Below, in pieces: positions 62,653 to 64,000 of a stretch of DNA of 64,000 bases. Source of the stretch: an uncultured Spirochaetota bacterium (GTDB lineage Bacteria > Spirochaetota > Brevinematia > Brevinematales > JAOACQ01); assembly GCA_963768055.1 (NCBI GenBank), contig CAVYGN010000001.1, forward strand, positions 53,590 through 117,589, given 5' to 3'. Position numbers and translations under genes: made by a program. The notes below the pieces were generated by a model, which saw only the letters and a list, made by a program, of their open reading frames with translations, did not search any database and had not been told where the DNA came from. Within the stretch, counting starts at the first letter, position 1. Each line of letters starts with the position of its first letter.

Positions 62653-63046
62653 ATAAACCTCCTTTGGATTTATCTTTATTTTACTAACGATTGTAACAGG
62701 AGTAATCAGGAATATTTACTGATTTATGAATATCATGCTCAGGAAATTAAACTGATTTTTAATAAAAAGCGTAGGGGATTATTACTGATTGGCATTATTT
62801 ACCGAATGAATCGACCATCTTTATTAATTCATTTTTATTCTTTGAACCTGTTTTCTGATAAATATGATAAACATGTGTTTCGACGGTTTTATTCGAGATG
62901 AAAAGCTTGTCTGAAATTTCCTTATAACTGTATCTTTGTACCAGAAGTTCAAGTATATCGCATTCCCTTTTCGATATTTTATGTTTTTCAGCAAATTCTT
63001 TAATGGGGGTAACAACATCATAGCTGTAACCAGGGGCAAAGTAGCT

Positions 63047-63206
63047 CTATATTGGGAATTTCTTAATAACTTCATTATATTTCTCTTGAGCCTCGACTAT
63101 AGAAAGTTTTGAATATATCTCGAGCGTCTTTCGGCTCTCATGTCCGCTATAAGGTTGTATCAAAGCATCATCAATACCTTGCTTTTTGAGCCATGTGAAA
63201 AGGAAA
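63047..63206 (-). pseudogene. C-terminal remnant of a tyrosine recombinase
   Basis: [34 protein letters not shown]: GH...Y catalytic region; stop abuts the left IR. Confidence 0.8.
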
Positions 63207-63287
63207 GCCCGTGGATTGAAACTGGAAAGACACATATTCTATCGCCGCCCCCATCGTCGGGCCCCACGCGGGCCCGTGGATTGAAAC
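63207..63287 (+). CRISPR. CRISPR remnant: 16-nt partial repeat, 33-nt spacer, full 32-nt repeat (type I-C-like)
   Basis: GCCCGTGGATTGAAAC / TGGAAAGACACATATTCTATCGCCGCCCCCATC / GTCGGGCCCCACGCGGGCCCGTGGATTGAAAC; hairpin-forming repeat ending ATTGAAAC. Confidence 0.8.
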
Positions 63288-64000
63288 CATTAAGGTAATC
63301 CGAATGTTTAATTCACGGAACATAAAAAAATCATCCGGTAGATTAATTGAAAGCTACTTTGCCCCTGGTTACAGCTATGATGTTGTTACCCCTAATGGGC
63401 AGTCCGGGCTCTTCCTTTATTTTTCCGGGCACTGTGATATATAGATAATAAGTATTAACGATAGTAAACAATAATATTCCATAACCGAGGGTATCCTGCT
63501 GGCCGATAAATAAGACTGTCAGGCTGATCGTATAAATTTTATTCTGGATAATATAAATCAGATATGAAAATAGCAGGATTGAAGAGCTCAATAAAAACAC
63601 AATGGATTTCAATCGGTCTTTTTTAATAAAATAAGCTGAAATAAATATATTGAATGCCAGGCCGGCCAATAATAAAATGTAATAAATCGATAGAATGTAA
63701 TTAAGCGATACCCAGTTAACCGGTAAGGTTAATGATATGATTATTAGTATAAAAACAGCGGAAATGATCCTGAAGATAGCCCTGCTTTGACTTTTAAAAA
63801 AAAGATATATGAACAGGGCGTTTATAAGGAACAGTTTTGCATAAAGTAAAATTATTTGTATTTTAATAAGCAAATCGGCTGAAATATCCGAAAGAAAATT
63901 AAGAGTTTCTCCCCTGCCGACTAAATTCAGGGCCTGGATAAATGCAAATAAACTCAGTATCAAAAAAGCGTAATTTTTCCTGTTCCCGAGCAGTAAGAGT

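Follow-up and report, generated by a model that had tools for sequence, protein, structure and literature searches.

A 387-bp Tn3-Family Mini Element with a CRISPR Remnant, and a Type I-C System between Tn3-Family Ends in the Same Genome

Introduction

How does a piece of a CRISPR array come to lie between the ends of a small transposon that has split a regulatory gene, and does it still have any function there? The question is raised by a locus near the right end of a 64,000-nucleotide stretch (the window) of contig 1 (C1) of the genome of an uncultured Spirochaetota bacterium. Plasmids, phages and integrative elements are known carriers of CRISPR-Cas loci, which have also been co-opted by Tn7-like transposons. 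An earlier note, made from the sequence of the window, had read the locus as what an internal deletion left of a Tn3-family transposon with a CRISPR array as cargo.

Results

The mini element covers window positions 63006-63392 (387 bp). It is flanked by two copies of TAATG (63001-63005 and 63393-63397), a 5-bp target site duplication (TSD) as expected of the Tn3 family. Its terminal inverted repeats (IRs), the left at 63006-63046 on the plus strand (GGGGTAACAACATCATAGCTGTAACCAGGGGCAAAGTAGCT) and the right at 63352-63392 on the minus strand, are perfect 41-bp inverted copies of one another (41/41 positions complementary), and the pairing extends to 48 nt at 94%. The IRs start with GGGGTAAC and so have the GGGG tip that, together with a length of ~38 bp, marks terminal IRs of the Tn3 family. 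Within the window the 41-mer was found at these two places only, with 0 matches in 100 shuffles. The earlier note had reported the perfect GGGG-tipped IRs and the 5-bp TSD, and our analysis bore out both, together with every detail of the interior order that it gave. Next to the left IR lies the 3' fragment of a TnpI-like tyrosine recombinase (63047-63206, minus strand), recognized by amino acid and DNA homology to plasmid recombinases and by the Pfam Phage_integrase model. It is followed, on the plus strand, by a partial CRISPR repeat (63206-63222; AGCCCGTGGATTGAAAC) that sequence comparison showed to be the 3'-terminal 17 nt of the repeat type common in array B on contig 2 (C2), a 33-nt spacer (63223-63255; TGGAAAGACACATATTCTATCGCCGCCCCCATC), a full 32-nt type I-C repeat of the trailer-end variant (63256-63287; GTCGGGCCCCACGCGGGCCCGTGGATTGAAAC), and a 64-bp segment (63288-63351) that reaches from this terminal repeat to the right IR. 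The interior also holds the direct repeat GCCCGTGGATTGAAAC (63207-63222 and 63272-63287).

The sole open reading frame (ORF) of the element, on the minus strand at 63047-63235, encodes 62 aa, a recombinase stub that runs on into CRISPR-derived codons. Tn3-family elements transpose replicatively by way of a cointegrate, which is resolved at a res/IRS site; no res site was recognizable within the 387 bp, and Rfam gave no match to the element. In its size (below ~500 bp), its lack of intact coding capacity and its possession of the IRs of an autonomous family, the element resembles TIMEs and other MITEs. The multiple copies typical of such elements were not found, as the complete element is present once in its own genome, plus one solo end at array B, and is absent from 100 related genomes.

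The insertion lies within a gene on the minus strand. Positions 62795-63005 encode its C-terminal part, a LuxR/GerE-type helix-turn-helix (residues 391-462 of the joined protein, C1:116387-116602). Positions 63393-64000, continuing to ~C1:118164, encode its N-terminal part, which based on the joined ORF and its homologues comprises a signal/extracellular region and seven transmembrane segments. When the element and one TSD copy were removed in silico, the flanks formed a single open frame of 474 codons, giving a 462-aa 7TM protein with the helix-turn-helix at its C-terminus when read from the first Met. Uninterrupted homologues of 458-477 aa, among them a paralogue at 69% identity and proteins of genus relatives, align over residues 1-458. 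The precise splitting of a LuxR gene that the earlier note described is thus correct. This restored frame also bears on whether the element or its junctions might be a chimera produced by collapsed IRs or CRISPR repeats during assembly. The genome consists of two contigs at ~95% completeness and may be a metagenome-assembled or long-read draft, and IRs and CRISPR repeats are classic points of misassembly. A chimera, however, does not generate a perfect 5-bp duplication that, once removed with the element, leaves a 462-aa gene colinear with its homologues, and the genome has no second copy of the recombinase fragment from which to mis-join, so that we find an assembly artefact scarcely credible.

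The recombinase fragment comprises the last 53 codons and the stop codon, which abuts the left IR. The region of the catalytic Tyr is retained and the N-terminal ~175 codons are deleted. Residues 3-62 of the ORF align at 82% aa identity with the last 60 residues (178-237) of the 237-aa recombinase encoded by a C. estertheticum plasmid, and the fragment has 74% aa identity to a Legionella plasmid recombinase. The Phage_integrase match (E=1.3e-3) scored below the cut-off because the recombinase piece is short. At the DNA level, positions 1-201 of the mini element are 76% identical to the C. estertheticum plasmid, where the counterpart is a 3.5-kb element with the order IR, recombinase, tnpA (in pieces) and IR. 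In Legionella and Paenibacillus plasmids tnpA is followed by the recombinase and then by the element end, and the Paenibacillus elements carry ars/P-type ATPase cargo upstream of tnpA, closed by distal IRs.

The IRs of the mini element align in register, and share motifs, with those of Tn3-family tnpA-tnpI elements that encode a Tn3 TnpA, and wherever relatives on plasmids or in genomes share this IR type and recombinase, a Tn3 tnpA adjoins, with the recombinase and IR immediately downstream of it. A degenerate scan of GTDB species genomes found 34 loci with GGGG-N9-CATAGCTGTNACCAG ends, many of them beside tnpA and this type of recombinase; none had the IR of the mini element or an adjoining CRISPR repeat. 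These comparisons place the IR and recombinase end in a Tn3-family subgroup with the order tnpA-tnpI-IR that is represented on Clostridium, Paenibacillus and Legionella plasmids, in support of the earlier assignment of the ends to the Tn3 family. With a Tn3-type transposase defined by DUF4158 plus DDE_Tnp_Tn3, the genome gave four Tn3 DDE matches (three full-length, one truncated), all of them in elements with other IRs and none in the mini element. As no tnpA matching the IRs of the mini element is present in the assembly, its mobilization in trans is something that we infer.

A third identical copy of the 41-bp IR was found elsewhere in the genome, at C2:1591411-1591451, where it ends array B, a 13-repeat I-C array with a leader and cas2-cas1-cas4 that lies on the inner side of this IR. 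The identity is not limited to the IR. The right 137 bp of the mini element, comprising the full repeat, the 64-bp segment (C2:1591452-1591515) and the IR, match the closing sequence of array B at C2:1591411-1591547 at 137/137 positions. The subtype is supported by the score of Cas1-B against the type I-C Cas1c model TIGR03640 (506 bits; cut-off 385). Since the spacer of the mini element does not occur in array B, and the repeat variants follow one another in a different order in the two, the mini element did not derive directly from the present array B.

At least five Tn3-family elements make up a dense mosaic in this region of contig 2. The array B locus is cut off by another Tn3 transposon, of the serine-resolvase type. 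This neighbour, a canonical Tn3 element at C2:1594822-1602199, has HigBA aboard, a mutated left tip (GAGG) and no TSD; PADLOC found no match among its uncharacterized cargo genes. The possibility that the 340 bp upstream of cas4-B are left over from cas7 was rejected for want of similarity. In a genus relative (G001) the I-C locus occupies a different position from that of array B, and no empty site for the array B block could be defined by synteny with genus relatives, as synteny ends directly after an ICMT-like gene and never resumes. The closest relative of Cas1-B (79%) is encoded in an ordinary chromosomal I-C locus with no Tn3 genes or IRs.

Approximately 16 kb from the array B locus is an intact 12.3-kb Tn3-family element, Tn-A (C2:1562894-1575168). 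Its perfect 43-bp IRs (C2:1562894-936 and 1575126-168), 12.2 kb apart, enclose tnpA, tnpI and a complete I-C system of seven genes (cas3-5-8c-7-4-1-2, encoding Cas3, Cas5d, Csd1, Cas7, Cas4, Cas1 and Cas2) with a 5-repeat array (array A), the arrangement of a cargo transposon. The transposase scored 870 bits as a Tn3 TnpA (cut-off 500), and the tyrosine recombinase is 221/245 aa. The cargo lies between a decayed inner IR (IR'), directly after tnpI, and the perfect outer IR. Such an inner IR' also follows tnpI in the relatives of the transposition module (tnpA 81-83%, tnpI 86%, IR with 1-2 mismatches), which carry other cargo in the same slot, either FGE-sulfatase-domain genes or an HRDC plus reverse-transcriptase pair. 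No cas genes were found near the recombinase relatives of Tn-A at 49 loci in metagenomes, and the closest relative of Cas3-A (74%) belongs to an ordinary chromosomal I-C locus without Tn3 genes or IRs. The cas operon of Tn-A would be transcribed from the tnpI side. The A and B systems are distinct (Cas1 65%, Cas2 76% and Cas4 55% identity).

Because a 5-bp direct TSD is absent around Tn-A, we regard it as a candidate 12.3-kb transposition unit. Its flanks, TTGTA and TACAA, are reverse complements of each other, and on the right lies the truncated tnpA of a different element, the other half of which is missing. Intramolecular inversion was considered as the source of these flanks and discarded, as the products expected from it do not predict the pattern. 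The TnpA of Tn-A is an unlikely mobilizer of the mini element, as the IRs of the two agree at ~19/41 positions in an alignment made by eye.

The full repeat of the mini element, which is identical (32/32) to the two terminal repeats of the cas-linked array B, is of type I-C. It is 32 nt long, ends in ATTGAAAC and folds into a GC-rich hairpin with a 7-bp stem, a 5-nt loop and an 11-nt tail. The partial upstream repeat lacks the 5' half of the 7-bp stem and marks the junction of the deletion with the recombinase fragment. With one full repeat, one 17-nt partial repeat and no leader, the remnant does not have the make-up of a working array, which has a leader and a minimum of two whole repeats around a spacer. 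Type I-C processing by Cas5d needs the repeat hairpin. As the upstream repeat is only 17 nt and stemless, normal cleavage cannot yield a 5' handle. A scan of the element for promoters and terminators was not above shuffled expectation (5 promoter-like sites versus 4.3). The spacer occurs nowhere else in the genome, arrays A and B included, and searches of the genome and of phage and plasmid collections gave no target for it or for the spacers of arrays A and B.

These observations bear on the suggestion of the earlier note that the element acts as a mobile mini-array or a repeat decoy. The I-C machinery of Tn-A might process a crRNA from the element, or the element might titrate Cas5d/Cascade, and it would in this way spread an immune or anti-immune function. 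The full repeat is intact, the genome encodes a complete I-C effector set, and one stem-loop architecture is common to the repeats of both systems, A and B, as is an identical 12-nt 3' end (GTGGATTGAAAC) that takes in the 11-nt tail. Set against this are the stemless upstream repeat, the lack of a leader or of promoter-like sites beyond chance, the spacer with no match, and the presence of the element as a single copy that the 100 relatives lack. We therefore consider such a function very improbable, and the suggestion finds no support in our data. Most likely the CRISPR piece is an inert relic, neither mini-array nor decoy.

Discussion

Our data suggest that the 387-bp element is probably a non-autonomous MITE of the TIME type, and a deletion remnant of a Tn3-type transposon that carried CRISPR-Cas. 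The cargo part of the earlier proposal, a Tn3 parent carrying a CRISPR array with cas genes, is well supported by the sequence comparisons, namely the 137/137 match to an array end linked to cas2-cas1-cas4, and by the precedent of Tn-A. The parent itself was not recovered: searches of the genome, 100 relatives, GTDB species genomes and metagenome contigs gave no intact element with the GGGGTAACAAC IR, the exact 30-nt IR had no match in metagenome contigs, and no cas genes were present among ~80 related Tn3 loci. In order, the lost parent would have had a left IR, tnpI and tnpA (both pointing leftward), the genes from cas3 to cas2 followed by a leader and array (all pointing rightward), the 64-bp segment and a right IR. 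The left and right halves of this layout are linked only through the mini element.

We hypothesize that a single internal deletion in this larger transposon gave rise to the mini element by fusing tnpI at codon ~175 to a trailer-proximal repeat of the cargo array. The product would then have transposed into the 7TM-LuxR regulator gene, leaving the 5-bp duplication, presumably by means of a TnpA that was supplied in trans and has since been lost. The array B locus would be a truncated sister of the parent that consists of the right IR, the 64 bp, 13 repeats, the leader and cas2-cas1-cas4, a serine-resolvase Tn3 transposon having inserted there and the remainder having been lost.

The CRISPR-Cas genes need never have been cargo if a plain 3.9-kb tnpA-tnpI parent had landed next to an I-C array already resident in the chromosome. 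The junction of array B and the IR would then have formed through later deletions or through recombination between repeats, and the mini element through a one-off rearrangement. This is consistent with the chromosomal nature, free of Tn3 genes, of the nearest Cas1-B and Cas3-A relatives, with the lack of any other CRISPR-bearing relative among the related loci and with the absence of the mini-element spacer from array B. The Tn3 mosaic on contig 2, with its truncated elements and missing TSDs, makes chance juxtaposition easier and so weighs against a cargo origin. However, a neighbouring insertion would leave the array outside the transposon tip, whereas at C2:1591411, as in the mini element, it is inside the IR. 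By our reasoning, the two structures would need at least two insertions and two deletions, with one endpoint exactly at a repeat end. In addition, the TSD of the mini element shows that an IR-to-IR unit with CRISPR sequence did transpose, Tn-A is an independent case in which perfect IRs bracket an entire I-C locus, in the slot where its relatives have their cargo, and array B is elsewhere than the I-C locus of G001. Accidental adjacency is thus unlikely in our judgement, and we favour descent of the mini element from a CRISPR-bearing Tn3 transposon.

A broader proposition, on which we are evenly divided, is that tyrosine-recombinase Tn3-family transposons serve as self-mobile vehicles for whole type I-C systems, with two independent cases in this genome. 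Tn-A suggests that cargo is gained in this subgroup by the addition of an outer IR beyond a decaying inner one. In Tn-A, capture would have involved decay of the inner IR and the addition of a new outer one past the array trailer, with the result that cas3 is only 18 bp from the former transposon tip. The immune operon may then be driven from a promoter at tnpI or the resolution site, and would travel with the transposon or be lost by internal deletion. If the vehicle reading is true, the mini element is the first "fossil" of a CRISPR-bearing Tn3 unit that actually transposed, and adaptive immunity would have yet another, very promiscuous route of spread in a replicative Tn3 carrier of a complete, interference-competent system. 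The related transposition modules are found in Clostridia, Legionella, cyanobacteria and this spirochaete-like lineage alike. The mini element would also illustrate the decay of CRISPR carriers into TIME-type elements that inactivate host genes. It also cautions annotators that an isolated repeat-spacer-repeat can be transposon debris and not an orphan array.

Among known systems, the mini element is most readily compared with TIMEs (PMC4133298; PMC13367494), which are likewise small and non-autonomous, have Tn3-family IRs and a 5-bp TSD, encode no transposase and are mobilized in trans. It differs from them in being single-copy and in its interior, a recognizable recombinase 3' end plus a CRISPR trailer as opposed to anonymous sequence. 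Moreover, TIMEs were described in Pseudomonas Tn3/Tn21-type elements, whereas the IRs of the mini element are those of the tyrosine-recombinase tnpA-tnpI-IR subgroup.

Elements of the Tn4430/Tn5401 type are similar in their Tn3-type TnpA, their small tyrosine recombinase without a separate arm-binding domain (a comparison by features), their IRs of ~38-41 bp and their 5-bp TSD. The gene order in Tn4430 is tnpI followed by tnpA. In the relatives of the mini element the order is instead tnpA, then tnpI, and in Tn-A the two genes are divergent; Tn-A and its relatives also have GGCC tips, not GGGG.

Like the CASTs (Tn7-like; I-F3, I-B and V-K), Tn-A is a transposon physically linked to CRISPR-Cas, with the array near a transposon end. 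CASTs pair an interference-defective effector, taken over for RNA-guided insertion, with Tn7-like TnsB/TnsC/TniQ. Tn-A does not qualify as a CAST, as its transposase is a Tn3-type DDE enzyme and there are no TnsB/TnsC/TniQ or other Tn7-type genes inside. Its system, with a full-length Cas3 (HD plus helicase) and cas1-cas2-cas4, looks like ordinary defence cargo, and nothing in Tn-A suggests RNA-guided insertion. We found no report in the literature of a Tn3-family transposon carrying a complete CRISPR-Cas system. The nearest parallel is with Tn3 transposons that have defence or toxin-antitoxin passengers, in which a defence module also occupies the cargo slot beside the resolution module. In Tn-A, by contrast, the slot is filled by an entire CRISPR-Cas system of seven genes together with the array.

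The Mini Element and Its Target Gene

The mini element occupies 387 bp of the window (63006-63392), and the coordinates given for it in an earlier note were all right. Its two ends are perfect 41-bp inverted repeats (IRs), GGGGTAACAACATCATAGCTGTAACCAGGGGCAAAGTAGCT, matched end to end, and TAATG lies on either side as a 5-bp target-site duplication (TSD), as that note had described. The 41-bp IR had no match in any shuffle of the window. From left to right, the interior contains a minus-strand gene fragment of a small tyrosine recombinase (its stop codon and final 53 codons), a partial CRISPR repeat of 17 nt, a 33-nt spacer, a full 32-nt repeat (GTCGGGCCCCACGCGGGCCCGTGGATTGAAAC), and 64 bp. 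Removal of the element and one TAATG restored a single 474-codon open frame (462 aa from the first Met), which upheld the claim that a LuxR gene had been split. The restored protein begins with an extracellular part, followed by seven membrane helices, and has a LuxR/GerE helix-turn-helix at its C-terminus; its uninterrupted homologues, a paralogue (69% identity) and relatives in the genus, are 458-477 aa long. The consequence seen today is that this LuxR-type regulator has lost its DNA-binding domain through the insertion.

The CRISPR remnant in the mini element is most likely inert. This is because the partial repeat upstream of the spacer lacks the stem, which is needed for CRISPR RNA processing, the element has neither a leader nor a convincing promoter, and the spacer had no match in the genome or in phage or plasmid collections. 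The proposal that the remnant acts as a mobile mini-array or a repeat decoy thus fared poorly, and we consider either function very improbable. That the structure is an assembly artefact is less probable still.

Tn3-Family Kinship of the Ends

BLAST searches against plasmids matched positions 1-201 of the mini element (IR and recombinase fragment), at 70-76% DNA identity, to plasmids of Clostridium, Legionella, Paenibacillus, Desulfosporosinus, Francisella, and endosymbionts. The recombinase C-terminus recognized earlier is borne out by the 62-aa ORF of the element, which shares 82% identity with the C-terminal part of a 237-aa C. estertheticum protein and 74% with a Legionella recombinase. 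On the C. estertheticum plasmid, the matched sequence belongs to a 3.5-kb element (IR = GGGGTAGGAAGAACATAGCTGTCACCAGAAGCAATACC) in which an IR, the recombinase gene, a fragmented tnpA, and a second IR follow one another. The Legionella and Paenibacillus counterparts have an intact Tn3 tnpA that overlaps with the 5' end of the recombinase gene, and the latter ends at the transposon terminus. On the Paenibacillus bovis plasmid NZ_CP021170.1 (L158, 14952-23265), a transposon related to the mini element's parent has the order IR-tnpI-tnpA, after which come genes for metal and arsenic resistance. This cargo, on the upstream side of tnpA, is bounded by two successive distal IRs (L158 22064-22103 and 23225-23265), suggesting that cargo grows stepwise through added outer IRs. 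A scan of species-representative genomes found 34 loci with GGGG-N9-CATAGCTGTNACCAG, the majority in psychrophilic Clostridium and others in taxa including cyanobacteria, Paenibacillus, and Desulfopila; at several of them a tnpA and a recombinase of the mini-element type adjoin. The tips (GGGG), the length of the TSD (5 bp), and the genes beside related ends assign the ends to a Tn3-family subgroup with the order tnpA-tnpI-IR, in keeping with their first description as Tn3-like. The mini element joins the TIMEs, a category of miniature Tn3-family derivatives (PMC4133298), as a new member.

A Matching End Closes a CRISPR Array on Contig 2

The 41-nt IR has three copies genome-wide, two in the mini element and one on the genome's other contig (C2:1591411-1591451). 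At the latter, a 137-bp stretch that spans the IR, the 64-bp segment, and the terminal repeat is identical to the right part of the mini element. Beyond this identity lie a type I-C array of 13 repeats and 12 spacers (array B), its leader, and then cas2, cas1, and cas4 on the minus strand (system B). The system B Cas1 scores above the type I-C Cas1c cut-off. The closest named Cas1 relative comes from a Brevinematales MAG. The mini element's spacer is absent from array B, and its repeat pair combines the common type with a G-variant terminal repeat while array B ends in two G-variant repeats; the mini element is thus derived from a sister copy, or one spacer unit was lost in each lineage. The two trailer-end repeats of array B have G, not A, at position 16, and its spacers 8 and 9 are identical, a duplicated spacer-repeat unit (C2:1591747-1591846).

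A canonical Tn3-family transposon (C2:1594822-1602199; L005 19823 to L006 7200) starts ~340 bp past the cas4 start of system B. Its IRs are GGGGTCGGCTCACGAAACGGAAATTTAACCACGTTAAG, with the left tip mutated to GAGG, and no TSD was found at its ends. It encodes HigB/HigA, a res region, a 192-aa serine resolvase, a 988-aa TnpA, a 373-aa FGE-sulfatase-domain protein, and a 436-aa partner of no known function. This transposon cuts short the cas operon of system B, and no cas genes follow on its far side. Presumably cas3-cas7 and the opposite end of the CRISPR-bearing element were lost through its insertion together with a neighbouring deletion.

The earlier note had envisaged a Tn3-family parent with a CRISPR array, possibly with cas genes, as cargo. 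An array with cas2-cas1-cas4 does lie inside an identical IR, but an intact parent was not found. The main rival explanation is chance adjacency, in which a plain transposon inserted next to an array already in place and rearrangements followed. The nearest Cas relatives are in Tn3-free loci, and no second CRISPR-bearing relative was present among the related loci compared, as chance adjacency would have it. However, both the array B locus and the mini element, two separate structures, have the array internal to the IR, and the mini element's TSD demonstrates transposition of a unit that was bounded by IRs and contained CRISPR sequence.

Tn-A, a Transposon with a Complete Type I-C System

About 16 kb from array B is the type I-C array (array A; 5 repeats, GTCGCGCCCCGTGTGGGCGCGTGGATTGAAAC) of Tn-A, an intact-looking 12.3-kb Tn3-family transposon (C2:1562894-1575168; L150 894-13168) enclosed by perfect 43-bp IRs (C2:1562894-1562936 and 1575126-1575168). 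Its operon is complete (cas3-cas5d-csd1-cas7-cas4-cas1-cas2), with a tyrosine recombinase (221 aa in homologues) directly upstream of cas3. The adjoining, divergent tnpA encodes a 1004-aa Tn3-type TnpA (870 bits against a cut-off of 500), and the right IR begins 8 bp past its stop. On sequence comparison, this system (A) and system B are distinct (Cas1 65%, Cas2 76%, and Cas4 55% identity); their repeats have alike folds and a common 12-nt 3' end, GTGGATTGAAAC, including an 11-nt tail.

Two metagenome contigs have the Tn-A transposition module at 79% DNA identity (tnpA 81-83%, tnpI 86%, IR with 1-2 mismatches). After tnpI they carry other cargo, FGE-sulfatase-domain genes and an HRDC plus reverse-transcriptase pair, indicating that the cas locus sits in the family's cargo slot. 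In Tn-A, the gap from the tnpI stop to cas3 contains a degenerate inner IR (80% match), 18 bp ahead of the cas3 ATG; both relatives have an inner IR at the equivalent place, interrupted by an 11-bp duplication. The core thus amounts to an IS-like unit of 3.9 kb (IR'-tnpI-tnpA-IR), and the cargo fills the space from the decayed inner IR to a new outer one. The outer-left IR copies only the IR and its 5 flanking bp, with no interior sequence. There is no direct TSD at the tips; the 5 bp outside them are TTGTA and TACAA, reverse complements (C2:1562889-1562898 and 1575164-1575173), an arrangement predicted by none of the pathways considered. There is no promoter-like or terminator-like site between tnpI and cas3, and read-through transcription is therefore predicted.

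Other Tn3-family sequences were observed on this contig. A truncated element (C2:1575125-1578009; order tnpI, tnpA) has a tnpI 37% identical to that of Tn-A and a 737-aa tnpA frame that enters the Tn-A right IR and ends there; the C-terminal part that it lacks does not occur anywhere in the genome. A third serine-resolvase module (C2:1555487-1559600; L074 487-4600) encodes a 991-aa TnpA and a 187-aa resolvase, with small ORFs nearby. Three solo Tn3-type ends (C2:1585586-1585626, 1672316-1672358, and 1678520-1678560), left over from additional elements within the IR superfamily of the mini element, have GGCCCTATGG-like rather than GGGG tips, and their inner halves match its IR (GTNACCAGGNGCAAAGTAG). 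A DsrE-like gene has its stop codon right against one of these ends, and a Gp49/HTH toxin-antitoxin pair adjoins another. Just outside one solo end, a gene (L007 19065-20000; C2: ~1679064) encodes a primase domain of TOTE conflict systems (Pfam AEP-TOTE, E=3e-100), which gives the region the appearance of a defence island.

FGE-sulfatase-domain genes are found repeatedly next to, or as cargo in, various Tn3-family elements (L079 131-2346 and 6366-7031; L080 2750-3676; L006 216-2554), twice paired with a ~440-450-aa protein of no known function. These genes and partners had no PADLOC family matches and may represent an undescribed passenger or defence module.

Origin of the Mini Element

That the contig 2 region is a Tn3 mosaic is in favour of chance adjacency. 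Against it, Tn-A exists, and several coincident deletions would be required; on balance, we regard chance adjacency as unlikely. Under descent from a CRISPR-bearing transposon, the parent probably had the layout IR_L - tnpI <- tnpA <- | -> cas ... array -> 64 bp - IR_R, with cargo positioned as in the Paenibacillus relative. A single deletion from tnpI to a repeat near the trailer would leave two intact ends 305 bp apart, and a TnpA able to recognize them would then have moved the remnant into the LuxR-type gene. No TnpA recognizing these ends is present in the two-contig assembly. Its four Tn3 DDE matches (three full-length genes, one truncated) all lie within 47 kb (C2:1555-1602 kb), in elements whose IRs differ from those of the mini element.

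Comparison with Known Systems

Tn-A and the truncated array B element both belong to the tyrosine-recombinase type of Tn3-family transposon. In the literature searched, there was no report of a complete type I-C passenger, interference-competent by gene content, on such transposons. Neither element is a CRISPR-associated transposon (CAST), because, in contrast to CASTs, Cas3 and the adaptation genes of Tn-A are intact and both elements are without Tn7-type genes.
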